Below, piece after piece: positions 2,387-39,517 of a DNA stretch of 64,000 bases (position 1 is its first letter; every line of letters starts with the position of its first letter). This DNA comes from a virus. Lineage: Duplodnaviria > Caudoviricetes. The notes under the pieces are model-generated. The model was not told the origin of the DNA, did no database searches, and was given only the letters and a program-made list of their open reading frames with translations. A program made the position numbers and the translations under genes. The DNA lies in IMG/VR virus record IMGVR_UViG_3300032216_000646, positions 31,751 to 95,750 of that record. The stretch is one strand, 5' to 3'.

Positions 2387-2710
2387 CTACTTCTTTCCAA
2401 AGTCTTTAGGAAGACCTAATGTTCTTGCCCATTTGAAACCTTTGTTACCGTAAGACGATTTCATAAGGTCTGGCGCAGGGATGCCTAACTCGGTGGCTTT
2501 CTGCACTGCAGTGTGATACATACCTGTAGCCACACCTTTACGTTGGTGTTCTTCATTCACACCCACGTGTATAGCCCCCTCGTTATCCCAAATCAATGCG
2601 CCAATCGCCCCATCCTCATTTGGATGGATAGCGTGGATGTTGTGGTCACCTGCTGGGTCTACAAAGTATTTATAGGTAACCCCTTCAAAAGCGGCTTTAC
2701 TTCTAGTCAT
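2387..2710 (-). CDS. GNAT acetyltransferase
   Basis: VGVNEEHQRKGVATGMY acetyl-CoA-binding motif A. Confidence 0.75.
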   Translation of the reverse strand: MTRSKAAFEGVTYKYFVDPAGDHNIHAIHPNEDGAIGALIWDNEGAIHVGVNEEHQRKGVATGMYHTAVQKATELGIPAPDLMKSSYGNKGFKWARTLGLPKDFGKK

Positions 2711-3033
2711 TTAAACACCACAGGTATGTGGGTCATACCAAGTTCTCTAGCAGCCATAACTCGATGATGACCCTCAGTAAGTAGAGTTTCACCGCTATCA
2801 AGTTTCGTTGCCTCTATTGGGTTTTTCAACCCTTGTGCAGCAATGTTTGCTTTTAGGTTTTCTACATAGTCGTCATCGTGAGCATCAAAGTTGGCGCAAG
2901 ATTCGGCATCAACATGTTTCATGCGTATTGGGTTTGAGTGGTCGCCATCATCATAATCAGAAGGAATAAACTCATTGACTTCAGACATAGGGACATCTAC
3001 AGAGCCGTGGAAGTCTGCTTTATTTGCACCCAT
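2707..3033 (-). CDS. Stand-alone ParB/Srx N-terminal domain protein
   Basis: LKANIAAQGLKNPI..LTEGHHRVMAARELGMTHIPV. Confidence 0.85.
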   Translation of the reverse strand: MGANKADFHGSVDVPMSEVNEFIPSDYDDGDHSNPIRMKHVDAESCANFDAHDDDYVENLKANIAAQGLKNPIEATKLDSGETLLTEGHHRVMAARELGMTHIPVVFK

Positions 3034-3788
3034 TAGTAAAGACTGCTCACATGTTGTTGTAGACGCTCATGCTCATGCTCTAGTTCGCCATGAGTGATGT
3101 CGTTGACGTGTTCGCCCATCTCGTCGATAGCACCGTGTGCTTCACCCATGTGGTGAGTGTGCCAATGAGACCCTTCTTCTAGGTTGTCTGCTTCATCAAG
3201 ATTGTATTTGATTTTGTCGTGTAGACGCATAACGTGAGCAGTAACCTCATCGTCTAAACCCGCAGCATGTGCTTTAGCAATGAACTCGTTCACATGTTCT
3301 TTTAGTTTATGAATAGTAGGTGGAGCGATTGGGTCCCAACGAGCATGGCGGTATTTGTCATCTGAAATGATGTGGTCATCAAACTTTTCGTTGCCTTCCC
3401 ACTCACCGCCAACAGCCCTAGCCCACTTGTCCCCTGTTTTAGTGCGCATAGTTGAATGCACAGGTGCAGGTATAGAAGGGATGTCTTCATGAAGTTCACC
3501 AGCAAACTTGTATAACTTAGTGGCTAACCCTTGACGACGCATCTCAGGGTGAGTCTCGATGTGTTGGATGCGACCCTTTTCATCCAGACCCATAGTGCCA
3601 ACAAAGTTGTCGTCAGCATCGTGCATAGTAAAGTTGTGCGCAGAAGTTCCAAAACCCATACGACCGTGATGGTATTGGATAGAGTGCGTAGCCCCATTAT
3701 CGTCAGTGACCTTCCAAGCCATAAGCATCTTATGGTCAGGATGTTCACCCGCTTGAATCTTAGTAGGGTCGTTTTCTACAACAGCCAT
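3033..3788 (-). CDS. GNAT acetyltransferase with His-rich helical C-terminal domain
   Basis: IETHPEMRRQGLATKLY; PAPVHSTMRT..GDKWARAVGG. Confidence 0.8.
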   Translation of the reverse strand: MAVVENDPTKIQAGEHPDHKMLMAWKVTDDNGATHSIQYHHGRMGFGTSAHNFTMHDADDNFVGTMGLDEKGRIQHIETHPEMRRQGLATKLYKFAGELHEDIPSIPAPVHSTMRTKTGDKWARAVGGEWEGNEKFDDHIISDDKYRHARWDPIAPPTIHKLKEHVNEFIAKAHAAGLDDEVTAHVMRLHDKIKYNLDEADNLEEGSHWHTHHMGEAHGAIDEMGEHVNDITHGELEHEHERLQQHVSSLY

Positions 3789-4333
3789 TACCTTGCTCCT
3801 TCAAACTCTTGGAAGTTACCTGGGTGGACTATCGATGGATGGTAGTCGTAATCTTCTTCGTGAAGTCTAGTGTCCATGTGTAGAGGTGCGCCTACACCCT
3901 TTTGCTTATTAGACGCTTCACTTCCACGGGTATGCACCATCACTGGAATGTGAGTAACTCCTGCTTGCAGAGCCGCCGCAAGACGGTGGTTACCTTCAGT
4001 AAGAACACCCCAACGTAGATTGTGGTCATAGTTTAGATGAACAGGTTCTCTGAGTCCGTCTATACCGTGAGTAGATAAGTCGTTAGCGATGTTGTTGATG
4101 TTCTCTTTGCTGTTAGCGTAGCCTTGAGCGCCCGTACGGTCATACTCTTTATAGCGCATTAGTTGATGCACAGGGACGAGAGCAACATAACGATTCCACT
4201 TATACCCTGGCTCATCACCTTTTAGGCTGCCGTTATCTGCGATAGCGTGAGTTCGCCATCCGCCGTTTTCATGAGTAGCAAGACCTGGACCCGTATAGGT
4301 AGGAACAGATGCAAACTGTTTACCAATGTCCAT
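3788..4333 (-). CDS. ParB/Srx domain protein
   Basis: GLREPVHL..LTEGNHRLAAALQAGVTHIPV; leader MDIGKQF. Confidence 0.8.
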   Translation of the reverse strand: MDIGKQFASVPTYTGPGLATHENGGWRTHAIADNGSLKGDEPGYKWNRYVALVPVHQLMRYKEYDRTGAQGYANSKENINNIANDLSTHGIDGLREPVHLNYDHNLRWGVLTEGNHRLAAALQAGVTHIPVMVHTRGSEASNKQKGVGAPLHMDTRLHEEDYDYHPSIVHPGNFQEFEGAR

Positions 4334-8321: not shown

Positions 8322-8855
8322 ATGCCTGAACCAGTCATCGTAACCATCCCAGAACTACTAATCCGTCAATGCGCCATGCTAGGTGTTGAACGTTGGCTAC
8401 AAAAGAAAAGCAGCGAAGACAAAGAGTCATACGCAGACGGACGCAAAAAAGGTTACCTCGAACATGACCTCCTCAACAGTGTGAGAGCCAACATCTCCGA
8501 ATGGGCTGTCGCCCAACACTACGGTCTCGCATGGAACGGTGGAATCACCTACACCAACGACCAACACGGTAAACGTCGCTACCTGCCCGACGTAGGAACG
8601 AACCTAGAGGTTCGGACACGTCGCACAGGTGGAGAGTTTGCTTTTTGGAAGTATGAAACCGAAAAGACAGGTTTCGCCGTGTTCACCGAAATAGTGGATG
8701 ACAACACCTTCGAAGAAGTGCGCATCCTCGGCTGGCTGCCAATCAGCGAATGTAGCCACCCCGACTATTGGGCTGCAGCCAACCGCCGCTACTATGTGCC
8801 TGCCTCTGCCCTAAATGACCCTCGTGACTTAGCGGCAGATGGTTTTCTAGGCTAA
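8322..8855 (+). CDS. Hypothetical phage protein, possible PD-(D/E)xK-like fold
   Basis: SEWAVA..PDVGTNLEVRTR; AGGA RBS. Confidence 0.55.
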   Translation: MPEPVIVTIPELLIRQCAMLGVERWLQKKSSEDKESYADGRKKGYLEHDLLNSVRANISEWAVAQHYGLAWNGGITYTNDQHGKRRYLPDVGTNLEVRTRRTGGEFAFWKYETEKTGFAVFTEIVDDNTFEEVRILGWLPISECSHPDYWAAANRRYYVPASALNDPRDLAADGFLG

Positions 8856-9751
8856 CCTCTCTCTCTCTCCCTCTCTCTAGCCAAAACGACCCTTTTGGCT
8901 CATTTGCCGCACCCTAACCCTTTGGCTACTGCCTCCAGTAGATACCCTCAACCATGTCTCCGCTCTGGGGGTGACCTGCGCACGGCTTCGACCGAAGGTG
9001 GGGGGGTCGGCGGATGGGCTGTCGGATGGCTGACGGACGATGGGCGAGTGCGAATCCTAGTGGTCGGCTGACCACCTGACAAGTAGTGAGGGGGGAATCG
9101 TTATACAACCGTGACTTTGGCTACTGCATCCGTCAGATTGGCGGTCGTGAAACCGCTTCCAAAGTATTAGCCACCACCCTCCACTGTTATCAGGTGTGAA
9201 CCCAGTGTTTACGAGGGTGTCAGGTGGCACGAGGCTCGTAGGCGGGCTTTCACCATGTAGGTGGTGTGATTGGACGTTTTAGGGGGGTCAGACCCTCCTA
9301 GGGGCATCCTGTGGCGTTTTAGAGGGGGTGGCTGGTCAGCCAGTTGGAGGCATGTATAACAATCGTATAACGATGCCATTTACCTATTGACAGGACAGCC
9401 AACTTATGGTAGCGACCCCAAAAGTCACAGTTTGATAACAATCTCTCCCTCTCTCTTGACTTATCTCTCTCTATGTGCATCTAACCCTCTACCTGAACTT
9501 GAATGTTCAGGGGGGGTGACCCCCCCTGTGACCCCCCTATAACGATTTGGTAACGCCTATTGTGCGACAGGCGGTTTTATGGTATTTCGCACGTGTGCGC
9601 ATGCGCCTGCGCTCGCACACCCAGATAAAACTGACCAAAACAATCGTTACCAAAACGTTACCATTTGCCTCTGTCGGAATGTCCTACGGATGTGCAAGAC
9701 TGGGGGGGTCGGCAACCCGCACCCACACGCACGTGGTCGGAGGCGCTGGCA

Positions 9752-9856
9752 GACCCCCCGTGCGGGCGGGTCGCAGGTGAGTGGATTCGCCTGCGATGCC
9801 ACCCCCGCACCTACCGCAAGGTGACCGCCTCCCCGCAAGGGCTAGGGTCGGGGGTC
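9752..9856 (+). ncRNA. Candidate structured RNA (multi-branch junction with two GCAA tetraloops)
   Basis: gaccccc/gggggtc closing stem; gtgcggg/cccgcac; tcgcaggtga/tcgcctgcga with G:U; acc-GCAA-ggt; ccc-GCAA-ggg. Confidence 0.45.
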
Positions 9857-10095
9857 GAGGCTCACGAACCGCCACTGACCGTGATAACTCCATAGTGACT
9901 ACGAAACACACATACAGGATTCCGACACCAGCCACGAAGTAGGCGCATCATGCGCCGATTCCAGTTGCAACAAGGTTCAGCCTCTCCATCGACAGGACGA
10001 TGGCGTGGCTGGTGTCGACCCTCCTGTCTCTGACCGCTTATCGGACACCAGCGCTCCCCCCGCTGGTGTCCGTTGAGTTGCCAGAGGCAACTCGA

Positions 10096-10111
10096 TGTTT
10101 CACGTGAAACA
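10096..10111. promoter_or_regulatory. parS centromere-like site (perfect consensus)
   Basis: TGTTTCACGTGAAACA, exact 16-bp palindrome matching the bacterial chromosomal parS consensus. Confidence 0.85.
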
Positions 10112-10157
10112 TTGCTCAACCTGCTCCATCAACCCAAGAACGTGAGTGTGATAACCC

Positions 10158-11504
10158 ATGACATACGCAACCATCATCAAGTCGGCACACAGTGCCTCAC
10201 TGCCACGAGAGACCGTGGTAATCGCAACGCCATCAGGCGTCCGTGCATTCACCCGCACCAACAACGGTGCGAGGGGTGCATCCAACAAGTGGTCGGTCGG
10301 CTCACCAGCCAACGCCGACCTCGAACTGGTCTACGGTCAGCCAGTGTCTCTGGCACTGACTGCCACTGACCTTGCCGAACTGGACTCTGCTCCATCGCAC
10401 ACTGGCTACCCTGCCAACATGCTCCAGCGTCTAGGTCGTGCCATCCGCACAGAGGTCGCACTGACCTCGACCAAACTGGTCGACCAGTTGGCAACCGTCT
10501 GGCATCTAGCCGAAACGGACGCCGACTCACTGGGTCAATACGTCAAGGGTCAGACAGTGGCATCCGTGCCGACCATGTCTGCTCCGACCGTGGTTGCCTC
10601 CGTGGTGACTGCTCCGAACGTGCCAGTTGCATCGGCATCCGTCAGCCAGTCCGTCAGCGGTTCAGCGCCAGTCGCATCGAACGCATTGCGCATCCCGCAA
10701 CTGACAGAGCCAGAACTTGCGGGCTACATTGACCGTGTGTTCGGCAACAAGAAACGCACTGGTGTCGAACTGCTCGACCACGCTCGCAAGGTCGGATTCA
10801 ACGTCCGCATCGAGGGTCACGCAGGCACTGGCAAGACCACGTTCACCCGCTACTATGCGGGCATGCGAGGTCTCATTCACGTTGCTATCCCATGCTCCCC
10901 GCAGACCGACTCACTGGACGTGCAGGGTGGCTGGGTGCGTGACTCGTTAGGTGGCTGGAGATTCCAACTCTCTCCATTCGCAGAGGCGATTCAGCAACCG
11001 TCAGTGATTCTGCTCAACGAGGCGAACCGCATGCCATCCAAGGGTCAAAACATGTTCTTGCAGGTTCTGCAGGAGCGCCGACTGACCTTGTCGACCTACG
11101 ACAACAGCGTCATTGAGGTTCACCCTGACTGCCTAATCATTGCCGACCTGAACGCTGGTCGGCAATACGTAAGCACGAACGCACTTGACCCTGCATTCGT
11201 TGACCGATTCAAGTTGCCAATCGTGTTCGGTTACGACCGTGACATCGAGGAGAAACTGGTCAAGTCCAAGACCCTGCTCGACTTCGCATGGAACGTGCGC
11301 AGTCAGCCACAGGTCTACAGAGACACCCCTGTCTCTGTCCGCATGTTGACTGCATTCGAGGCGAACGCCATCGGGTTGCAGGACATCAGCATCGCCATCG
11401 AGGTGTTCGCAAACGCATTCACCAACCCAATCGAGCGTGACAGCATCCGCACCGCTCTTGAGGCGGAGGCATTCCGCATTGAAACCGACCTAGGCATTGC
11501 CTAG
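10158..11504 (+). CDS. MoxR/CbbQ/CobS-like AAA+ ATPase
   Basis: GHAGTGKT Walker A; ILLNEANR variant Walker B; LDPAFVDRF arginine finger. Confidence 0.85.
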   Translation: MTYATIIKSAHSASLPRETVVIATPSGVRAFTRTNNGARGASNKWSVGSPANADLELVYGQPVSLALTATDLAELDSAPSHTGYPANMLQRLGRAIRTEVALTSTKLVDQLATVWHLAETDADSLGQYVKGQTVASVPTMSAPTVVASVVTAPNVPVASASVSQSVSGSAPVASNALRIPQLTEPELAGYIDRVFGNKKRTGVELLDHARKVGFNVRIEGHAGTGKTTFTRYYAGMRGLIHVAIPCSPQTDSLDVQGGWVRDSLGGWRFQLSPFAEAIQQPSVILLNEANRMPSKGQNMFLQVLQERRLTLSTYDNSVIEVHPDCLIIADLNAGRQYVSTNALDPAFVDRFKLPIVFGYDRDIEEKLVKSKTLLDFAWNVRSQPQVYRDTPVSVRMLTAFEANAIGLQDISIAIEVFANAFTNPIERDSIRTALEAEAFRIETDLGIA

Positions 11505-11526
11505 GTCACGAGGAGAAACGATAACC

Positions 11527-13566
11527 ATGAACGAACTAATCATCCGTGAGAGCGTCCGTGACGCTCAATCCGAATACGCACAGCGTTGGGCATCGGTCGT
11601 TGCGAAGTTCGCAACTGCACTGACTGGTCAGCGCATCGACTGCTCACTCTCTGCAGAGACCATCGCACCAGCGTGGTCAAGTGAGTCGAGCATCTGGCTA
11701 TCAGAGCCAACCTTGCCTGACCTCCAGACCACACACGGTGTGTTGGTTGCCAAGGGTCTGGCACTGCACGAACTGGGTCACATCCTGTTCACCCCTCGCA
11801 ACGCAACCCAGTGGAGACGCACCGTCAACGCAGAGGGTCTAGGCGAGGCGATGAACATCCTTGAGGACATGCGACTTGAGTCATTGCTGGTCGCACGTCA
11901 CCGTAGCAGTGTCTCACCATGGTTGTCGGCGCTTATCCTGCACTACCTGCTGGACGATGCCAAGACCATCCCGCTTGCATTCCCTTTGATTCATGGGCGC
12001 AAGTTCTTGCCACTGGCAGTCCGTCAGGACGTCCGTGACGCCTACGAACACCAGCACATCGTGCCTGACCTCGTGCGCATCATTGACGCCTACCGCAAGG
12101 TAGTTCTGCCTCGTGACACTGACCTGTCTCTCGACCTCATTCGTGAGTTCAAGCAGGTTCTTGACTCTGTCAAGCCGACTGGCTCTGGCACTGGCAACGG
12201 TGGCACTGGCGAGGGCGAGGGTTCAACCAGCCAGCCACCGCAGGGTGGATGCGGAGTGCCTAACCCGAACCACCCGACTGGTCGACCAGAGTCCTACGAC
12301 TCTGACCCTGACCACGCACCTCTGTCCAACAAGGAGCAGGAGCAGTTGACTGACCGCATGGACGAGACCACAGAGGGTGGCGAGACTGACGAGTCACCTG
12401 CCAAGGACAAGGACGAGTCCGCAACAAACAACCAGCCAGCCGATGCAGATGATGCTGACGCCGATGGTGACGATGCGGATTCTGACGGAGGCGATTCATC
12501 CGACAGTGACTCCGACAGTGACGCCGATGACGATTCTGATTCAGATTCAGATTCGACCGATGGCGGTTGCACACTAGGTGGCTCGACCGATGGTGACTCC
12601 GATGGCGATGCTGACGGTGACGCCGATGGCGATGCTGACGGTGACAACGGTCAGCCAACCGACCAGCCAACCGACAAGGGTGGCAAGGGTGCAGGTCAGG
12701 ACGATGGCTCACAGCCAGCGCCTACCAGCCTGCAGGACGCACTGGACGCCATTGCCTCGACCCTGTCTGACGCCATTAGTCAGGTGCAGGAGCAGGTAGG
12801 TCTGTCACCTGACCTCCAGTCAGTTGACAACGTGTTCGCACAGCCTGCCGACTACAACGAGGTCAAGATGGATGACCCGAAACTGGGTCACGCATCCATC
12901 ACCATGGCGGAGGAGTTGGAGCGCCTACGTGCCGAACACGAGCCTGCATGGGAGCGTGAGACCCGCACTGGACGCCTCAACGTTGGACGCCTAGTCAACA
13001 ACGAGGACACCGACCTACCATTCGACCGCTGGAACGATGGTCAGGACGATGTCACCGCAGTCGAGGCAGTTATCATCCTCGACAACAGCGGGTCGATGGC
13101 TGGCGAACGTGCCACCAACGCCTACCGTTCGATGTTCGCTCTCAAGAGTGCGCTCGACATGCTGGGCGATGCACGTTGCACCGTGTTGACATTCAACTAC
13201 CGTGCGCACCTGCTCTATGGTGCGGACGAGGTTGCAGGCTCAACCATCCGTGACGCAGGCGCATCAGGTGGCACGAACGCACACGATGCCATCGCCTATG
13301 CGACCAACGTCCTTGCCAAGTCAGAACAGCCAATCAAGTTGTTCTTTGCCATCACCGATGGTGACTGGTCGGACGCCAACCGTTCGGATGAACTAATCGG
13401 CAAGTTGCGAGACGCTGGTGTCCTCACCGCCATCGCACAGGTCGGTGGCGGTTCAACCAACGACCACGGATGCGAGGTCTACAGCGATGTCAACAACACC
13501 GCCGACCTCCTCGTCCTAGGTCGCAAACTGGTCAACCTCGCAGTTGACCGCAACCTCGCTCGCTAG
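11527..13566 (+). CDS. CobT-like protein: HExxH metallopeptidase-like domain, acidic linker, vWA domain
   Basis: HELGH..NILEDMRLE; D/S/G-rich linker; IILDNSGSM..GGT..ITDG MIDAS motif. Confidence 0.85.
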   Translation: MNELIIRESVRDAQSEYAQRWASVVAKFATALTGQRIDCSLSAETIAPAWSSESSIWLSEPTLPDLQTTHGVLVAKGLALHELGHILFTPRNATQWRRTVNAEGLGEAMNILEDMRLESLLVARHRSSVSPWLSALILHYLLDDAKTIPLAFPLIHGRKFLPLAVRQDVRDAYEHQHIVPDLVRIIDAYRKVVLPRDTDLSLDLIREFKQVLDSVKPTGSGTGNGGTGEGEGSTSQPPQGGCGVPNPNHPTGRPESYDSDPDHAPLSNKEQEQLTDRMDETTEGGETDESPAKDKDESATNNQPADADDADADGDDADSDGGDSSDSDSDSDADDDSDSDSDSTDGGCTLGGSTDGDSDGDADGDADGDADGDNGQPTDQPTDKGGKGAGQDDGSQPAPTSLQDALDAIASTLSDAISQVQEQVGLSPDLQSVDNVFAQPADYNEVKMDDPKLGHASITMAEELERLRAEHEPAWERETRTGRLNVGRLVNNEDTDLPFDRWNDGQDDVTAVEAVIILDNSGSMAGERATNAYRSMFALKSALDMLGDARCTVLTFNYRAHLLYGADEVAGSTIRDAGASGGTNAHDAIAYATNVLAKSEQPIKLFFAITDGDWSDANRSDELIGKLRDAGVLTAIAQVGGGSTNDHGCEVYSDVNNTADLLVLGRKLVNLAVDRNLAR

Positions 13567-13588
13567 TCGAGCGGGGTTGCTCCCAACG

Positions 13589-13632
13589 ACTGGCTGGCAT
13601 CGGGCTTATCACACTCACCGATGCCAGCCAGT
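13589..13632 (+). other. 15-bp intergenic stem-loop (possible processing site or terminator)
   Basis: actggctggcatcgg / ccgatgccagccagt perfect inverted repeat. Confidence 0.55.
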
Positions 13633-13747
13633 TCTCACATCCGTCACATCATCCGTTAGACCTGTCTCATCCTTCGTTCAGAACTTTCTCTGGCAAGGGC
13701 AACCCGCAACAAACAAATCCATCAACGCTAAAGGAGCGTGGTAACCC

Positions 13748-14428
13748 ATGACAATCAACCATCGACCAGCAGGCTCGCCTGCCTCTAACCAATACGGACA
13801 GTTCACCGTCCGCTACGCATCACCAGCGCAACAGCGATTCATCGCCAAACTGCTGGACGAACGTGACCACACGCTGGGCGCACTTGACCCAGCGACCGTG
13901 AACGTTCAGAACGCCTCCAGCATCATCGACCAGTTGCTGGCATTCCCTATCCGTGCCGACAAGGTGGTCTACGCCTCTGACAAACAGCGAGCGTTCATCA
14001 CCTCGCTCCGTGAGTCCAAGGTCAACGGTGGCATCATCGTGGACGAGGCGCTCGCCAAGTTCGGTGTGACCCTCGACCAGATAACCTCCACGCAGGCACG
14101 TAACCTCATTGACCGCCTGCTGGTGGCTCAATCCATCCCCAAGACCGTCAGGGTCGAGGTGGGCGCTTACATGCACAAGGGCGTGGTCTACAGCGTCCGC
14201 AGAGGCACACAGTCGGGCAACCTCAACGCATTCCAGTGGAATGGTGACGCATGGGTCTACGCTGGCGCAGTCAAATACGCCATCGAGCCATCGGAGCGCC
14301 TAAGCCTCATGGATGCGATGAACTTCGGAGCAGGCACAGGCGTCTGTGTCCACTGCGGTCGAACCCTGACCGACCCTGACAGCGTTCGATTCGGCATCGG
14401 CTCAACCTGTCGCAAGAAATACAACTAG
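13748..14428 (+). CDS. Phage protein with C-terminal DUF6011-like zinc finger
   Basis: CVHCGRTLTDPDSVRFGIGSTC; repeated AS..Q..FI..L units. Confidence 0.7.
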   Translation: MTINHRPAGSPASNQYGQFTVRYASPAQQRFIAKLLDERDHTLGALDPATVNVQNASSIIDQLLAFPIRADKVVYASDKQRAFITSLRESKVNGGIIVDEALAKFGVTLDQITSTQARNLIDRLLVAQSIPKTVRVEVGAYMHKGVVYSVRRGTQSGNLNAFQWNGDAWVYAGAVKYAIEPSERLSLMDAMNFGAGTGVCVHCGRTLTDPDSVRFGIGSTCRKKYN

Positions 14429-14556
14429 TCATACACGTGTCCGTCCGTAAGTCCATCCGCCAGTTTTTGGATACCCCGGTGAAAGCCAGGTCGTACCAAT
14501 CCCTGACGGATGGACTCGGACGTTCATCGTCCGTCAACCTATCCATTGGAGCAAAC

Positions 14557-14799
14557 ATGAACCGTGAAAAAAATCAAGTCTCTCGTCCGCCTTTTATCCT
14601 TAGAGCCATCCGTCAGCCAATCCGATTAGCACTCGTGGTCGGGTTCTGCTACCTCGTGGTTGGATTCATCAACATTGAAATCTGGCTCGTCAACCAAAGT
14701 CCGTTCATAAACGGTGGTGACCTACTTGCTTGCATTCTGGCAGTGGTCGCAGTTAGAGTATTAGTCCGCATCATCCCCGACACCAAGAAAGTGAAGTGA
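14557..14799 (+). CDS. Small membrane protein
   Basis: GGAG RBS; two hydrophobic segments. Confidence 0.6.
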   Translation: MNREKNQVSRPPFILRAIRQPIRLALVVGFCYLVVGFINIEIWLVNQSPFINGGDLLACILAVVAVRVLVRIIPDTKKVK

Positions 14800-14804
14800 T
14801 ACCC

Positions 14805-15503
14805 ATGCAAAGCAAGGACATTACATCCAAGCCACTCGACACAGAGTGGGCAATCATCAAGTGGAATGCCACCGTCCGCAAAGACGTCAAAGCCTCTGGT
14901 CTCGTTCACTGGGAGTCTTTGGAAAAGGTCACACTGGTCAGCACCGACCGCTACGAGGTCGACAAGACCAAGCGCTCCTATGACCCAGACGATGCTCTGT
15001 TCGTCCGTAAAGCAGACCCAGTCAAGGGTTCATTCGGCTACCTAATCAAGGGCGAGGGTGACCCTGACAGTAATGACCCGACCAAGCCTGTCTATCGAGT
15101 CGTGCCTGCCAGTGACTTCATCAGTCCGTGGGCAGACCAAGCCACCCACGTGGAGGAGCAACGCAACGAGCAACAGCGCATCATCAAAGAGCAGGCAGAG
15201 GCACGTGTTCGTCAGCAAATCATCAGCGAGGAGAATGACCGCAGGCAAAGGATAGCCAGAGAGGTTGCTCTCGACCGTGCAGTCAAAGCCAACGAGACTG
15301 CCAAAGCATTCATGCTCAAGCACATCCCTGCAGACATGGTGGAGGACATGGTGGACTTCAACTTCTACTCCGATGTCACTTACAAACCGTCAGTCGATGG
15401 CATTCACCTCGATTACACGCCAAACATCAACGGTGTAATCAACATGCGAGCAGAGGTCTGGCAGACGTTCATGCAAGTGTTCATGGACTTGCAGAATGAC
15501 TAG
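14805..15503 (+). CDS. Hypothetical protein
   Basis: Long ORF following the GTGATACCCATG start motif. Confidence 0.75.
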   Translation: MQSKDITSKPLDTEWAIIKWNATVRKDVKASGLVHWESLEKVTLVSTDRYEVDKTKRSYDPDDALFVRKADPVKGSFGYLIKGEGDPDSNDPTKPVYRVVPASDFISPWADQATHVEEQRNEQQRIIKEQAEARVRQQIISEENDRRQRIAREVALDRAVKANETAKAFMLKHIPADMVEDMVDFNFYSDVTYKPSVDGIHLDYTPNINGVINMRAEVWQTFMQVFMDLQND

Positions 15504-15647
15504 CCTCAAAGAATACGGACGTCACGGATACGTGGCGTCCGTGTTCGTCTTATCCGTAACAACATCCGTAACAGCGTCCAAACATCCAAACAGCGTTGTA
15601 GCCGTTTCGGTGTTTGGCAATCCAACAAGAAAGAAAAGGTGATACCC

Positions 15648-15779
15648 ATGCGATTAGAAGTAACCGCTAAAGAAAGATTCTGGTTCATGATGCGATACAT
15701 CATGCCAAAACGTGCCATGTCAGAACTAAGCAAGCCGAACGGTGTGTTCGAGCGTTTCATGAACGGAGAGTGTCAGTAA
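15648..15779 (+). CDS. Small hypothetical protein (43 aa, not in ORF track)
   Basis: AAGAAAGAAAAGGTGATACCC-ATG; MRLEVTAKERFWF..ECQ*; TAATG coupling to the next gene. Confidence 0.7.
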   Translation: MRLEVTAKERFWFMMRYIMPKRAMSELSKPNGVFERFMNGECQ

Positions 15780-16009
15780 TGACCATTCACATTGACCTCT
15801 CCAATCTTGGAGACCCAGACGAACCATTCAACGATGAAGTCATGCAAGCGTTAGGCAAGAGCCTCACCCTATGGGTGAACGGTCATGCACACTTGCTCGC
15901 ATCCATCAACCCATCCGTCACCGTGTCCGTTGACGAACCCGAAGATGTCCCCACGGGAAACGCCGTTGGGTCAGAACAACAAGAAAGAAAAGGTGATACC
16001 CATGAGTGA
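15779..16009 (+). CDS. Hypothetical protein
   Basis: Coupled ORF MTIHIDLS. Confidence 0.6.
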   Translation: MTIHIDLSNLGDPDEPFNDEVMQALGKSLTLWVNGHAHLLASINPSVTVSVDEPEDVPTGNAVGSEQQERKGDTHE

Positions 16010-16157
16010 AAACTGGAAATCAAACTGTGACAACTGTGGCGAACGTCCGCACACTCACGGAGCAAATGGAGTCGATGGCACTCAAGTCATGCTCTGCGAT
16101 GCCTGTGTTGCAACTCTGCAAGACAAAGGTGAACTGCCAAACGTGGAGGTGGAGTGA
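16002..16157 (+). CDS. Small CxxC zinc-binding protein
   Basis: Start motif; CDNC..CDAC. Confidence 0.65.
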   Translation: MSENWKSNCDNCGERPHTHGANGVDGTQVMLCDACVATLQDKGELPNVEVE

Positions 16158-16465
16158 TGAACGATTCACCACTAAAGAAATGTCCAGTCTGCATCCGTGC
16201 CTACCGTGGCATGGGCGCACTGTCACGGAGAGACAACCAGACCGAGGTCTGCTCTGACTGTGGTCAGCGTGAGGCGCTGGAGGCATTCGTAGGACTGTCC
16301 GCAACAAACAATCCTGCCGACCCTGCCACCACCACCTGCAAGCACTGCGGTGAGACCGTCCGTCACGATGGCATCGGCGCATGGGTTGACGAGACCGATG
16401 GTGATGGATGCCTGCAAATCACCAAGTTCAATCAGGTTCACGAACCAGTATTGGCAGGTGCATGA
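16154..16465 (+). CDS. Cys-rich zinc-binding protein
   Basis: CPVC..ALSRRDNQTEVCSDCG..CKHCG. Confidence 0.7.
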   Translation: MMNDSPLKKCPVCIRAYRGMGALSRRDNQTEVCSDCGQREALEAFVGLSATNNPADPATTTCKHCGETVRHDGIGAWVDETDGDGCLQITKFNQVHEPVLAGA

Positions 16466-16749
16466 TGCAAGTTCGTTTCAGTTACTCACCAAAGCACGTC
16501 AAGTTCGTCTATGACGCTGACACCGCTCGTGTCCGTGCCACGTTCATCCACGACAGCGCAGAAGTCAACTCAAAGTGGCTTACCGCTGACGAGGAGGCGA
16601 GCATAGGCGAGGTCTACGAGGACATCTACACCTACAAGGAGTATTCCATCAACCTCAAAGAGTTGCTAGAGACCGACTTCATGTTCGACTCGTGCGACAG
16701 TGAACCCTGCAACTTTGAAATCATGCTAGACGAACTATCCGCTAGGTAG
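16462..16749 (+). CDS. Hypothetical protein
   Basis: ATGA overlap with the previous gene. Confidence 0.65.
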   Translation: MMQVRFSYSPKHVKFVYDADTARVRATFIHDSAEVNSKWLTADEEASIGEVYEDIYTYKEYSINLKELLETDFMFDSCDSEPCNFEIMLDELSAR

Positions 16750-21123: not shown

Positions 21124-21314
21124 TCAAAGAGGCTAAAAGCCAAGGTTGGCAAATCGTCATGACCAATGGCAACCACCTCAAATGGATAGCACCCAACGGT
21201 AAAGTAGTGTTCTCCGCTTTGACAGGGTCAGACCGCCGAGGTATTCTAAACCTCAAGAGCCAACTGCGCATCGCTGGGTTTATCGAAATCAAAAAGCAAG
21301 GTAAAAGCAAATGA
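21078..21314 (+). CDS. HicA-like RNase fold protein
   Basis: IIKEAKSQGW..NGNHLKWIAPNG..TGSDRR..NLKSQLR; GTG start after AGAAAGG. Confidence 0.7.
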   Translation: MSKARIGTDKETKQIIKEAKSQGWQIVMTNGNHLKWIAPNGKVVFSALTGSDRRGILNLKSQLRIAGFIEIKKQGKSK

Positions 21315-21595
21315 ATGAATCGTGGGTAGGGGCAATCTGCTCCGAAACTGACCCTGAACTTTTCTTCCCAGAGAAGTTGAGCAACACTACACAAATCAGG
21401 CAAGCAAAGCGCCTCTGCGCCACGTGTCCACTCACCGCCCAATGCCTAGAGGTGGCTATGAAAAAGCCATACGAGGGCATCTGGGGGGGAACTCTACCCA
21501 GTGAGAGAGCAAGCATGAAAAGACATCCTGAACTAATCCAAAAACACCTAAAAGAACTGAGGGCAAATGCTAGAACTATTGAGCAGGCTGACTAA
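21311..21595 (+). CDS. whiB: WhiB family transcription factor
   Basis: C-x-x-x-DPELFFP..CATCP..C..GIWGGT. Confidence 0.9.
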   Translation: MNESWVGAICSETDPELFFPEKLSNTTQIRQAKRLCATCPLTAQCLEVAMKKPYEGIWGGTLPSERASMKRHPELIQKHLKELRANARTIEQAD

Positions 21596-21798
21596 TGGAA
21601 CAGCCAGATTTATTGAACAAAGACGACGTGGCAAAACTCGCAGGGTTCAAGTCACGCACGACCGTGAGGCTTTATCAAAAGCGAGGCATCCTTCCCAAGC
21701 CAGACGTTTACGTCAAGAGCAAGCCGATGTGGAACAGGTCAACTATCGAAAGATGGAACTGTGACCGCAACAGCATCGAACTGGTAGAGATTCCGTAA
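21595..21798 (+). CDS. MerR/Xis-like winged HTH protein
   Basis: LLNKDDVAKLAG..TVRLYQKRGILPKPD..PMW. Confidence 0.7.
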   Translation: MEQPDLLNKDDVAKLAGFKSRTTVRLYQKRGILPKPDVYVKSKPMWNRSTIERWNCDRNSIELVEIP

Positions 21799-21867
21799 GA
21801 CTATCCGTAAGCCCACTTCGCTGCCAAAAAAATGTCAGTGGGGTGTGCTAAGAAATCGAGGGCAATA

Positions 21868-22998
21868 ATGATTCAGCAAAAACTAAATGATTACATTCAA
21901 AGTTGGCTACCAAAAGCCGACCTACTACCCATCACCAAAAAGAACTACGAGTCTGTCCTACGCATCCACGTCCTGCCACGCATGGGCGAGAGAGTCATAG
22001 CAGACATCCGTAGAGCCGATGTCCGTCAACTGCTGGACGAACTACGTGACGTAGGCATCTCCAGTTCTATCCGCTCCCAAGCCAAAGCCTCCCTAGGCTC
22101 TGCACTGCAGGCACTGGTAGACCGTGACGAACTAGAGTCCAACCCGACGCACAAGATTCGCATCAAGAAGTTAGACAGCCAAGACCTACGCAACGTCCTA
22201 GACCCAGAGGACTTCAAGACCATCCGTCAGAACCTCCGTAATGACGTCGCCGCACTTTTTGCAGACTTCCTTGTTCTTTCGGGTTGCCGATTCGGAGAGG
22301 CATCCGAACTAAGACTCAAAGATGCCAACTTCAAAACCAACGAAATCTACATTCAAAGACGAGTCAGTGACCTAGGTGGAAACCATAACAATGGTTCAAG
22401 ATTCAGGGTTATCGAGGCTACAAAGTCAGGTCGTAGCCGTGCTGTCGTAGTCACAAAGCCACTTATGGACGCAATCAAAGCCCATTCACAAGCCCACGGA
22501 CTAGCACAAAACGACCTATTGTTCCCTGTGAACTTGTTTGCTAAAGACGATACCGTGGAAAGCATGTCACGAGACACGGACACCGCAAAGACATTCGTCA
22601 AGAACAAAAGGTTATACACCCACGGAACGCAATACGCTTACGTGCATGGTCTTTGCAGGTGTGAGCAATGCCGAGATGCGATGCGAAAGTATCGAGCATC
22701 ACAACGCCTACCAAAAGTCAACCAGCGTCCTGCCACCAACACGACAGGACACTTACCTCGTGACACATGGAGACTAATCTGGCTAGAGGCAATCGGTAAG
22801 TCCAATGTGGAATGGAGTCCACGCACCCACGACCTTCGTCATGCCAACGCTACGCTGTTACTAAAAAATGGCGTGGATGTGAACGAAGTCAAGGAGCGTC
22901 TAGGACACTCATCCATCAAGACGACAGAACGATACCTACATCGTCTGCGTCACCAACGGTCAAAAGCAGCGGAAGCAGTGGCTGACTTTTTGGAGTGA
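21868..22998 (+). CDS. Tyrosine recombinase with inserted zinc motif
   Basis: SGCRFGE, TKSG, HDLRH, LGHSS, TERY catalytic set. Confidence 0.9.
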   Translation: MIQQKLNDYIQSWLPKADLLPITKKNYESVLRIHVLPRMGERVIADIRRADVRQLLDELRDVGISSSIRSQAKASLGSALQALVDRDELESNPTHKIRIKKLDSQDLRNVLDPEDFKTIRQNLRNDVAALFADFLVLSGCRFGEASELRLKDANFKTNEIYIQRRVSDLGGNHNNGSRFRVIEATKSGRSRAVVVTKPLMDAIKAHSQAHGLAQNDLLFPVNLFAKDDTVESMSRDTDTAKTFVKNKRLYTHGTQYAYVHGLCRCEQCRDAMRKYRASQRLPKVNQRPATNTTGHLPRDTWRLIWLEAIGKSNVEWSPRTHDLRHANATLLLKNGVDVNEVKERLGHSSIKTTERYLHRLRHQRSKAAEAVADFLE

Positions 22999-26231: not shown

Positions 26232-27746
26232 TTACTTATCTTCGATAGCATTCTTGATAATGTAAGTGGTTTGCTCTTCCGTCATACCCTGTTGCTGACG
26301 TTCTTGCTCCTTGATTGCCTGCACTCTGTCACCAAAGATTGCGCTCAAAACACCCTGACCAGCATTGCGTTGTGCAGTGATTTGAATGAACTCTTTATTC
26401 TCATCAAGAGCCTTGATTTTCTCCAACATCTTGAAGTATCTGTCCATCTCTTGAGACAAGTTAGGGTCAGCATAACCACCGTTCAACTCCTCTGAGAACC
26501 GCATGAATGCTACTCTCTGGGCTTGCATCTCAAGCAACGTAGTGTTCAACGCACGTAGTTGAGCAGGGGTCTCGACCTTGACTGGCAGGTTGAATGCACA
26601 AGTGTTTGCAGGCTTGAATGCAGGGCAGTTAGCAGCAATAAAACAGGTGTCACACTGCCTCAAAGAGGTGGTGTTGGACTGCACCATAGGCACTTGCTTT
26701 AGAACATCACGACCATCTTGATTCTCTACAACAGTGGTCATCTCGTAACCAAAAACAGGCATAGAAATGACCTCAGAAGGGTCTCTTTGAACTACTTCTT
26801 GTCTTTCGACTTTCCGCATTTCAGAACCGTTGTTATCAGAAGAACCTATACCTGTTTCCATCAAACCAGTGTATAAAGTATCGTCACTGTTGTCAGATAG
26901 TTCTGACTGGGTTGGCTTCCATGGATGGTTGTTATTGCTGGGTGTGTCTTTACTCACATTTGCCTCTAACTGTAAATACGACCAGATTGCCAGCCGTGTT
27001 GCTTCCAAAGTATCATCCGCAACAAACTTCGCAAAGTCCAAGTCTGCACGTTCAACAATGTTCTTGTAGCGGGGTCTAGCCTGCTCTTTCATCCGTTTTG
27101 GGTAACGAACTAACTTGCCACCATCCCACACAATGGTTTCTCCTCGACGCATCGGTGATAGCCAAGAAAGAGTAGATGTAGTAGCAAAAGGAATCTGTCT
27201 TAGATTGTCGGGTTTTGCACAAGCCAGAGCGTGGAAGCGTACTGGGTGCTGACGGATAAGGTTACGGACAACGCCAGCCAAGGATGTAACAGACTCAATA
27301 GCCTCATAAGGGATGGCAATGTTCTGGAACTGAGTTGCCCACTTCTGCAATACAAGAGTGTTGTATGACTCATGCCAAACAATCCACATCTTTGGGTCGT
27401 TCTCGAAAGAGGCACGGTTTGCCACAATCTTAGGCAACCCCCAAACTTGTGAGTCAAACTCTACCCAACCTTCGATGCGGTCATAGTTTTCAGCAATGAA
27501 CTCCTCATACTCGGCTGCGTAATCTTCTAACTCGGATGGACTTAGGTTAGCCTTATCTGCTTGAGTTGCGCCAGAATCAACAAAAACCTTCATTTGGGGA
27601 AGAAAATGCTCCGCAATCAGGTATTTCTTAGTAGTAGGTAACCCACGCTTACGGAGACCCCAATAGTTGAGCATTACGTGACGGACACCCTCACGCTCCA
27701 ACAGGGTTCTATTGGACGGAATCTCTACTCCACCAAAGATAATCAT
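26232..27746 (-). CDS. TGT/DpdA-like TIM barrel fused to a Cys-rich C-terminal domain
   Basis: VFVDSGA, EFD, VWH, RFHALA, STLSW..RRGE; CDTC..CPAF..C. Confidence 0.55.
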   Translation of the reverse strand: MIIFGGVEIPSNRTLLEREGVRHVMLNYWGLRKRGLPTTKKYLIAEHFLPQMKVFVDSGATQADKANLSPSELEDYAAEYEEFIAENYDRIEGWVEFDSQVWGLPKIVANRASFENDPKMWIVWHESYNTLVLQKWATQFQNIAIPYEAIESVTSLAGVVRNLIRQHPVRFHALACAKPDNLRQIPFATTSTLSWLSPMRRGETIVWDGGKLVRYPKRMKEQARPRYKNIVERADLDFAKFVADDTLEATRLAIWSYLQLEANVSKDTPSNNNHPWKPTQSELSDNSDDTLYTGLMETGIGSSDNNGSEMRKVERQEVVQRDPSEVISMPVFGYEMTTVVENQDGRDVLKQVPMVQSNTTSLRQCDTCFIAANCPAFKPANTCAFNLPVKVETPAQLRALNTTLLEMQAQRVAFMRFSEELNGGYADPNLSQEMDRYFKMLEKIKALDENKEFIQITAQRNAGQGVLSAIFGDRVQAIKEQERQQQGMTEEQTTYIIKNAIEDK

Positions 27747-38340: not shown

Positions 38341-39189
38341 TTACTCGTCCTTGTAAGGGTCGCATTGCTTGCAAGTGCCTCCTGCGTTGTTACTGCAACG
38401 TGGTGCAACCTTGTCTTCTACGGACTCTACAACAAACTTTGCGCCCTCGAACACGTGGCGAACCAACTCGTAGTCACGCTTGATGGTGAACTCCTTGTAA
38501 GACTGGTCAGCCTTGAGTTCATACAAGAACACAATCTCGTTTACGTCGTGACCCATGCGCTGCATAAGTTCTAGGTAAACCTGACCCTGCTTGATGTGGC
38601 TCGGAAACGGACGACGGATGTTGCTCCACGCTTTCATGAAGTCTCCGTCAGCCTCTGACATAAGACTAGGGTTTTCTGCACGGATAGTTCCTGGACCTAC
38701 GGACTTGATTTCAATCAAACAATCGTCACCAATGCCTTTTATCCAACCATCGGTGTGACCAGCAATACGTAGTTTGTCGTCTACCAAGGTAACCTCACGG
38801 TATTCCATGGTGTCTTTCTCACACTGTGGGCAAGTAACCATACCAATGTCAAAGATAGAAAATAGGCATGAAGTACAGGTAAAACGACCATACAGGACGC
38901 CCATCTCCTGAAACCAACGCTGCCACTTGGCGTGAATAGCGTGACCCTCGTCAAAGATTGACTGCAGGCGCAACCCTGGCTTGTCAGAAATCTTAGTGTG
39001 TCCGCTCAACAAGAAATACGATGCACGCTTGCACCAGTCATTCTTGATGATTTCGGATGGGTGCAGCACAACAGTGCTACGGTCGCCCACAGGACGAGCC
39101 ATGAGGTGACGCTCAATGTCACCGAGCAAACGACTTGGCTTTGCCTTAGCGTCCAAGAATCGCTTTAGTTCTGTCTTACTTACTGCCAT
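38341..39189 (-). CDS. Cas4-like PD-(D/E)xK exonuclease
   Basis: HPSE..C, GHAIH, GHTDG..IEIKS, QxxxY, C-terminal Cys cluster. Confidence 0.85.
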   Translation of the reverse strand: MAVSKTELKRFLDAKAKPSRLLGDIERHLMARPVGDRSTVVLHPSEIIKNDWCKRASYFLLSGHTKISDKPGLRLQSIFDEGHAIHAKWQRWFQEMGVLYGRFTCTSCLFSIFDIGMVTCPQCEKDTMEYREVTLVDDKLRIAGHTDGWIKGIGDDCLIEIKSVGPGTIRAENPSLMSEADGDFMKAWSNIRRPFPSHIKQGQVYLELMQRMGHDVNEIVFLYELKADQSYKEFTIKRDYELVRHVFEGAKFVVESVEDKVAPRCSNNAGGTCKQCDPYKDE

Positions 39190-39517
39190 ACAGGTTTTCC
39201 CTCTCATCTAACTGCAAGATGTATTCTTGCAGAGTCATCTGCTTTTTGTAAAGTCTTTGCCACTTACGGACAACGGCGTTACGTTCACGGTGGGATAACC
39301 CACCCCAGATTCCATGTTGCTCATCTGACTCTACAGCAAACCACAGACATTCTGTACGCACAGGACACGGTGTTTTACCAGTCTGACCAAAGCAGAACTT
39401 CTTGGCTTCATTAGCCACGTTCTTATAGGTCTCTTTGTCTCTTTGAGGATAAAACAGTTCAACATCTGCTCCGTTACATTTAGCCTCATCAAGCCAAGAC
39501 ATGTCTCTACTAGGCAT
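39176..39517 (-). CDS. whiB: WhiB family transcription factor
   Basis: AKC..FC..CPVRTECL..GIWGGLS. Confidence 0.9.
   Translation of the reverse strand: MPSRDMSWLDEAKCNGADVELFYPQRDKETYKNVANEAKKFCFGQTGKTPCPVRTECLWFAVESDEQHGIWGGLSHRERNAVVRKWQRLYKKQMTLQEYILQLDERENLYGSK

Follow-up and report, generated by a model that had tools for sequence, protein, structure and literature searches.

A solitary chromosomal-type parS site on a phage genome without partition genes as a candidate loading site for host ParB

Why does a phage genome that encodes no partition system of its own carry a perfect chromosomal-type parS site? We address this question for a phage whose IMG/VR record comprises 95,750 bp, with a CheckV completeness of 100%. 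The terminal repeat of the record is only 123 bp long and may thus be no more than overlapping ends left by the assembly of a circular or permuted genome. The analysed stretch of DNA, here called the window, comprises 64 kb (bases 31751-95750 of the record), and positions refer to it unless stated otherwise. The parS site is a 16-bp palindrome, not assigned to a strand, at 10096..10111; it matches TGTTTCACGTGAAACA exactly, and the sequence around it reads ggcaactcgATGTTTCACGTGAAACATtgctcaacc. It is identical to the chromosomal consensus palindrome tGTTtCAcGTGaAACa at 16 of 16 positions, and with the A at 10095 and the T at 10112 included the palindrome spans 18 bp (10095-10112), beyond which positions 10094 and 10113 are unpaired. 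The site is intergenic and lies ahead of an operon for a MoxR-type ATPase and its VWA-domain partner, 46 bp from the start of the MoxR ORF at 10158. The coordinates, the sequence, the palindrome and the distance to MoxR, all given in a first-pass annotation of the window, were reproduced. Its description of MoxR as the first plus-strand gene does not strictly hold, as a coding-looking ORF on the plus strand (8322-8855), which has a coding-like codon-position GC and a PHROG match, precedes MoxR.

The count of parS in the complete genome, which had been proposed as a check, is one copy in 95,750 bp. No second site was found in the 64-kb window even with up to three mismatches, and none in the whole genome with at most one mismatch. 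By chance, the 16-mer is expected about 2e-5 times in 96 kb, and the exact word was present in 0 of 100 dinucleotide-preserving shuffles. The site is no chance match.

A partition system encoded by the phage itself was not detected. We performed six-frame HMM searches over the complete 95,750-bp genome for ParA (AAA_31), the HTH domain of ParB (HTH_ParB) and ParB_N, and neither ParA nor the HTH domain was found; a tblastn search for a canonical ParB with two actinobacterial ParB proteins against the genome returned only noise. The ParB_N profile had two matches in the genome, both below the Pfam cut-off and both in small single-domain proteins on the minus strand that have only the ParB/Srx fold and no HTH: one of 108 aa (2707..3033) with the motif EGHHR, and one of 181 aa (3788..4333) with the motif EGNHR. 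With their sub-threshold matches, their lack of an HTH and their nuclease/Srx-type motifs, both were rejected as a cognate ParB. Single-domain ParB-fold proteins are frequent in phages (PMC12704722). The lack of ParA and of an HTH-bearing ParB, which the first-pass annotation had reported for the window, is thus true of the complete genome as well, and the search of the rest of the genome for parA and parB revealed no cognate phage ParB that would speak against a use of the host protein.

The phage is myovirus-like, with baseplate wedge and tail proteins, a family A DNA polymerase, a helicase and a ribonucleotide reductase (RNR). Its host is probably an actinobacterium, an assignment at the phylum level only, because the genome carries two WhiB genes and because the nearest cultured homologues of its MoxR are those of Brevibacterium phage Cantare and of Gordonia Bendigovirus phages (31-34% identity). 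WhiB occurs in Actinobacteria and their phages and thus marks an actinobacterial host; both WhiB-like regulators (21311..21595 on the plus strand, and a second copy at 39176-39517 on the minus strand) score above the Pfam cut-off, and among 14 control genomes Corynebacterium was the sole match of the WhiB profile. A scan of GTDB genomes with the RNR yielded no match as a host clue, and neither did BLAST of the phage tmRNA against 301 sampled Actinomycetota genomes at an E-value of 1e-6 or better. The tmRNA gene itself is located at 811-1103 on the minus strand (Rfam, 121 bits) and encodes the tag ATQNAYALAA. Furthermore, the genome contains a tyrosine integrase (21832..22998, plus strand; PF00589), preceded by a small ORF (21595-21798) that is excisionase-like by eye only and has no Pfam match. 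As the integrase is missing from five complete related genomes, the lifestyle of the phage may differ from that of these relatives. On the minus strand, 26232-27746 encodes a 504-aa protein that matches PHROG 887 (queuine tRNA-ribosyltransferase; 5e-59) and no Pfam family. If this protein is DpdA-like, 7-deazaguanine might be present in the phage DNA and could alter the binding of ParB.

The first-pass annotation had identified the word as the chromosomal parS that is also used in Actinobacteria, and this was borne out by a survey of the phylum. The exact 16-mer is present in 83 of 201 sampled Actinomycetota genomes, usually in 1-12 clustered copies, whereas the control word, which is the same word read backwards, is present in none of them. 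All four genomes reached via WhiB have the parS word, either exactly or with one outer mismatch. In a Mycobacterium genome, two copies flank rsmG beside parA and parB, and these read cATGTTTCACGTGAAACATc, an 18-bp palindrome identical to that of the phage. At the host loci L257 and L258, the word adjoins rsmG, parA and parB, and L257 has the identical 18-bp form. Thus, the probable host lineage uses the identical word as its parS, here established at the level of the phylum only, and the sequence identity suggests that a ParB of Actinomycetota should recognise the phage site. At these host loci (L257 4611 and 5358, L258 4881) the word overlaps the start of rsmG and is read as ATG TTT CAC GTG AAA CAT, which is translated into MFHVKH; a small ORF that harbours a parS-like site in one relative of the phage (G002, described below) reads MFHVEH.

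The same word is also found on other viral genomes. We detected the exact parS word in at least 118 IMG/VR viral contigs, compared to two contigs for the word read backwards, which is a palindrome of equal composition; this amounts to an at least 59-fold excess. Among the 118 loci that were fetched (L004-L121, 1.05 Mb in total), 92 contain a single copy, and in none of the 118 was a canonical ParB found by tblastn. These loci are thus not fragments of chromosomal origins, and chromosomal contamination was rejected as the source of the viral matches. For instance, an unrelated phage with a 59.7-kb record that is rated 100% complete (G463, locus L057) carries parS twice without a mismatch (3643-3658 and 3799-3814 of L057), both copies within a single intergenic gap ahead of a 249-aa gene, and has no ParB_N domain anywhere in its genome. 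Its DNA methylase has about 75% amino-acid identity to that of the phage studied here. For annotation, this means that a parS site on a viral contig is by itself no sign of contamination by a plasmid or chromosome.

In the relatives of the phage, the picture is mixed. Searching with the DNA polymerase revealed hundreds of related IMG/VR records with 69-81% identity, and the scan for parS comprised 58 records of relatives, about 2.4 Mb. Sites with at most two mismatches were found in only two of these genomes, G002 and G004. A look-alike in G006 was discounted; it has AG instead of CG at its centre and coincides with a Shine-Dalgarno sequence and a GTG start codon. The G002 site, TGTTTCACGTGGAACA, matches at 15 of 16 positions, where about 0.03 sites within one mismatch are expected in 2.4 Mb, and the G004 site, AGTTTCACGTGAAACT, contains the exact 14-bp core GTTTCACGTGAAAC, for which the expectation is about 0.01. 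Both are located upstream of MoxR, in the same sector as the site studied here, and nowhere else in those genomes: the G004 site in a divergent intergenic gap about 40 bp ahead of a gene start, and the G002 site within a small ORF 3 kb ahead of MoxR. As the sector around MoxR is highly mosaic among the relatives, the two sites are not orthologous to the parS of our phage. Of the nine relatives in which the MoxR region is present, seven lack parS at the same threshold of two mismatches, as do four of the six complete relatives; five distant cultured phages that carry MoxR have no parS either. The positional conservation that the first-pass annotation had suggested to check is thus partial and weak: near-perfect sites do occur in the same sector in two of nine relatives, whereas these are not orthologous and the other seven relatives have none. 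The absence from most relatives and the non-orthologous positions imply that the site is dispensable for the group. From these sequence comparisons, we conclude that parS-like sites recur in the MoxR sector above chance, yet are dispensable.

Closer relatives of the locus were sought in several ways. There was no match in a megablast of 9000-12000 against cultured phages, in scans of IMG/VR with the MoxR and VWA proteins or in two JGI metagenome scans, and a MoxR profile scan retrieved distant AAA+ genes only. A protein database contains three homologues of MoxR (P0001-P0003) with 97, 94 and 81% identity, the last of which is encoded on a 98.7-kb contig. The module thus has nearer counterparts elsewhere than in the relatives examined above.

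The surroundings of the site within the genome are GC-rich and structured. MoxR (10158..11504, plus strand; Pfam AAA_5, 1.8e-13; phrog_249) is the first gene downstream of parS and is followed by the gene of its VWA-domain partner (11497..13566, plus strand; Pfam VWA/VWA_2). It is also the first gene past a 1.3-kb non-coding gap (8856..10157, not assigned to a strand) that has a GC content of 57% and carries parS at its 3' end. The GC1/GC2/GC3 pattern seen in the adjacent genes is missing from every ORF within 8856-10157, and the gap is rich in G-run inverted repeats. Directly upstream of parS, folding and stem analyses revealed a strongly structured stretch on the plus strand (9923..10093). 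It includes a perfect 14-bp long-range stem, in which 9923-9936 pairs with 10004-10017, and a long hairpin at 10025-10089 that has a perfect 11-bp core at 10043-10071 and lies directly ahead of parS. The 246 nt from 9915 to 10160 fold at -107 kcal/mol (z -7.2), and 0 of 200 shuffles were as stable. This stretch could be a terminator, a non-coding RNA or an origin element. Among such candidates, a known non-coding RNA was rejected, as no Rfam family matched the gap at an E-value below 0.5, and an intrinsic terminator was rejected, as no terminator-like site was detected; a sigma-70-like promoter was not found near parS. The MoxR gene and a downstream DUF6011 gene share the start context GTG(A/G)TAACCC-ATG (10143-10157 and 13733-13747), and a third copy of TGAccGTGATAAC at 9876-9888 is not followed by an ORF.

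Together with the MoxR, VWA and DUF6011 genes, the gap forms a GC island (about 8400-16600) with a GC content of 55-61%, compared to 47% for the genome. The MoxR protein is 35-40% identical to the copy of the relatives, compared to 69-81% for the DNA polymerase, and the relatives have no such gap ahead of MoxR, a normal GC content and no parS there. Because of the GC island, the low identity of MoxR compared to the DNA polymerase and the missing gap in the relatives, the whole module was apparently swapped in from a source of higher GC content, and parS may have come along with it. Among 401 sampled Actinomycetota genomes, no close homologue of MoxR was found, and a chromosomal donor is thus not evident.

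What, then, could the site be used for? Taken together, the identity with the parS of the host phylum and the missing phage par genes suggest that the phage probably borrows the ParB of its host. We consider it likely, albeit clearly short of certain, that host ParB binds to the site; this binding in vivo, and all that would follow from it, we infer from the sequence. Our preferred reading, in which we have an even measure of belief and doubt, is that we are dealing with a true parS of the host type, at which host ParB would be loaded for partition or positioning in a similar way as in phi29. In an actinobacterial cell, a dimer of host ParB would recognise the palindrome on the phage DNA, bind CTP, close as a clamp and slide onto the flanking phage DNA, such that a partition complex would form on a genome without ParA and ParB of its own. 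Host ParA and the polar machinery could then move or tether the ParB-coated phage genome like a chromosome origin, and SMC might be loaded on it as well. As a consequence, a phage genome that is neither integrated nor lytic (in a carrier state, in pseudolysogeny or before integration) would be passed on to the daughter cells. Several observations stand against this reading: there is one parS copy here compared to five in phi29; an integrase is present, such that partition may be unneeded; parS is absent from most relatives and from the five distant cultured phages; the site lies in the GC-rich module with its divergent MoxR and may have arrived there as a passenger; and modified guanines, if the PHROG match to queuine tRNA-ribosyltransferase reflects their presence, could alter ParB binding. 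Although we rank partition or positioning first, we are much less certain of it than of binding, and silencing, titration and a neutral passenger have to be weighed as its rivals.

A neutral passenger would have entered together with the GC-rich MoxR/VWA module by horizontal transfer from another actinophage or a host chromosome, and ParB may bind to it without any selected benefit. This would fit the GC island at about 8.4-16.6 kb, the divergence of MoxR (35-40% identity to relatives, against 69-81% for the DNA polymerase), the relatives that lack both the gap and a parS ahead of MoxR, the absence of parS from most relatives and its single copy. However, selection would be needed to keep an 18-bp palindrome perfect for long in non-coding DNA, and near-perfect sites are found in the same sector in two other members of the group, compared to expectations of about 0.03 and 0.01. 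The at least 59-fold over-representation of the word relative to the control word in viral contigs and the lack of a close MoxR homologue in all 401 Actinomycetota genomes also argue against a passenger, which we regard as possible but rather unlikely. A function in gene regulation would make use of the position of the site instead. Spreading proteins of the ParB family, such as P1 ParB and KorB, can repress transcription; ParB that is loaded 46 bp ahead of MoxR and spreads from there could silence or roadblock the MoxR/VWA operon and its neighbours, or the palindrome could be the operator of another regulator. The site indeed lies directly upstream of the operon, where a long non-coding leader ends, and in G004 a gene starts about 40 bp downstream of the site, which is located in a divergent promoter gap there, whereas the G002 site lies in a small ORF 3 kb from MoxR. 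Yet no sigma-70-like promoter was found near parS, and the operator of an unrelated regulator would not have to share all 16 positions with the host parS. In addition, operator sets of phages usually include further copies or enriched half-sites, neither of which is present here, and we rejected the operator set of a phage repressor on these grounds. Regulation is thus an unlikely main function in our assessment.

The remaining two explanations appear less probable. If the parS of the replicated phage were present in many copies, it might sequester ParB-CTP and thereby impair chromosome segregation, the loading of SMC or cell division in the host, to the benefit of the phage. A host-type site without own par genes would suit such sabotage, as would the nearby set of host-modifying enzymes, which includes an ADP-ribosyltransferase-like protein (one weak Arr-ms match), a GNAT protein and the ParB/Srx proteins. 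One site per genome, however, makes a weak sponge, most relatives lack parS, and many actinobacteria can do without ParB, which leaves the gain from titration unclear; we deem this explanation quite improbable. Lastly, the palindrome might be only one stem-loop in a run of hairpins, with a role as a terminator, a processing site or an origin structure, and its identity with parS would then be coincidental. It does follow directly after two strong hairpins in the 246-nt stretch with a z of -7.2, but a hairpin does not need the exact parS word, chance would yield the 16-mer about 2e-5 times in 96 kb, no shuffle contained the word, and there is no U-tract after parS and no terminator-like site. 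A mere hairpin is thus the explanation to which we give the least credence.

The first-pass annotation had also considered a plasmid-like maintenance of the phage, based on a recombinase, an initiator and iterons. The recombinase proved to be a tyrosine integrase of an ordinary kind, with an NlpC/P60 gene after it, and this integrase argues for integration and not for plasmid-like carriage. Furthermore, no replication initiator was found among the seven ORFs of at least 120 aa that were screened in the plus-strand block, and plasmid-like maintenance is therefore not supported. A more speculative version would be that parS and the structured 1.3-kb gap together form a minimal maintenance module, in which an RNA-primed or structure-based origin is combined with a centromere served by host ParA and ParB. 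The phage would then be a low-copy episome in slow-growing freshwater actinobacteria that needs no partition or initiator gene of its own, and the ParB/Srx-fold mini-proteins might modulate the clamp of host ParB. In non-RepA mycobacteriophages, the par locus adjoins a non-coding region from which an RNA is expressed that these phages require to replicate (PMC7157519), and this region resembles the structured gap beside the phage parS. This RNA-based origin beside the parABS locus of cluster A phages keeps the idea of a maintenance module alive, but its probability is low.

Loading of host ParB, our preferred reading, can be compared to three known systems. The chromosomal parS and ParB-CTP system of Actinomycetota, as in Corynebacterium glutamicum (PMC7083940), has the identical 16-bp word, and the 18-bp palindrome is that of Mycobacterium. 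In these chromosomes, however, parS sites are clustered near oriC beside parA, parB and rsmG, whereas the phage site is solitary, lies beside MoxR and VWA on a genome without parA and parB, and lacks this origin-proximal setting. The parABS systems of extrachromosomal prophages, such as P1 and the cluster A mycobacteriophages (e.g. RedRock, PMC7157519), likewise involve a centromere-like site, in cluster A on an actinobacterial phage. Yet in these systems the phage itself supplies ParA and ParB, and parS consists of arrays of 8-bp direct repeats that are specific to the phage ParB. Here, we found neither the adjacent par genes nor the array of cognate repeats that mark the partition cassettes of P1, N15 and the cluster A mycobacteriophages, but a single palindrome of the host type. 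Furthermore, those extrachromosomal prophages have no integrase, whereas one is present here.

The closest likeness is with the virulent Bacillus phage phi29, the only proven precedent, which has five host parS sites and for which the host ParB, Spo0J, has been implicated in moving the genome into the prespore (Meijer et al. 2005, summarised in PMC2731898). Both phages carry the parS word of the host chromosome and have no ParA or ParB of their own. They differ in that phi29 has five sites, compared to a single site here that is not repeated across the genome, and in that the phi29 mechanism is tied to sporulation and Spo0A boxes, whereas the probable host of our phage belongs to the actinobacteria, which mostly form no endospores. 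Moreover, phi29 is a 19-kb protein-primed podovirus, whereas the phage described here is myovirus-like and has a genome of 96 kb with an integrase. To our knowledge, a use of host ParB via a host-type parS is known experimentally only for phi29 and its relatives, where it serves the entrapment of the genome in the spore. With its single copy and poor conservation in relatives, this one site adds modestly to that example. An orphan perfect parS on an actinobacterial phage, together with the at least 59-fold excess in IMG/VR, nevertheless suggests a wider practice. Such borrowing of the centromere system of the host may be common across phages, where it might contribute to inheritance in a carrier state, positioning at the cell pole, silencing or interference with host segregation. 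The principle of a host-type parS on a phage without ParB is already established for phi29, and we interpret the phage described here as a further example of it.
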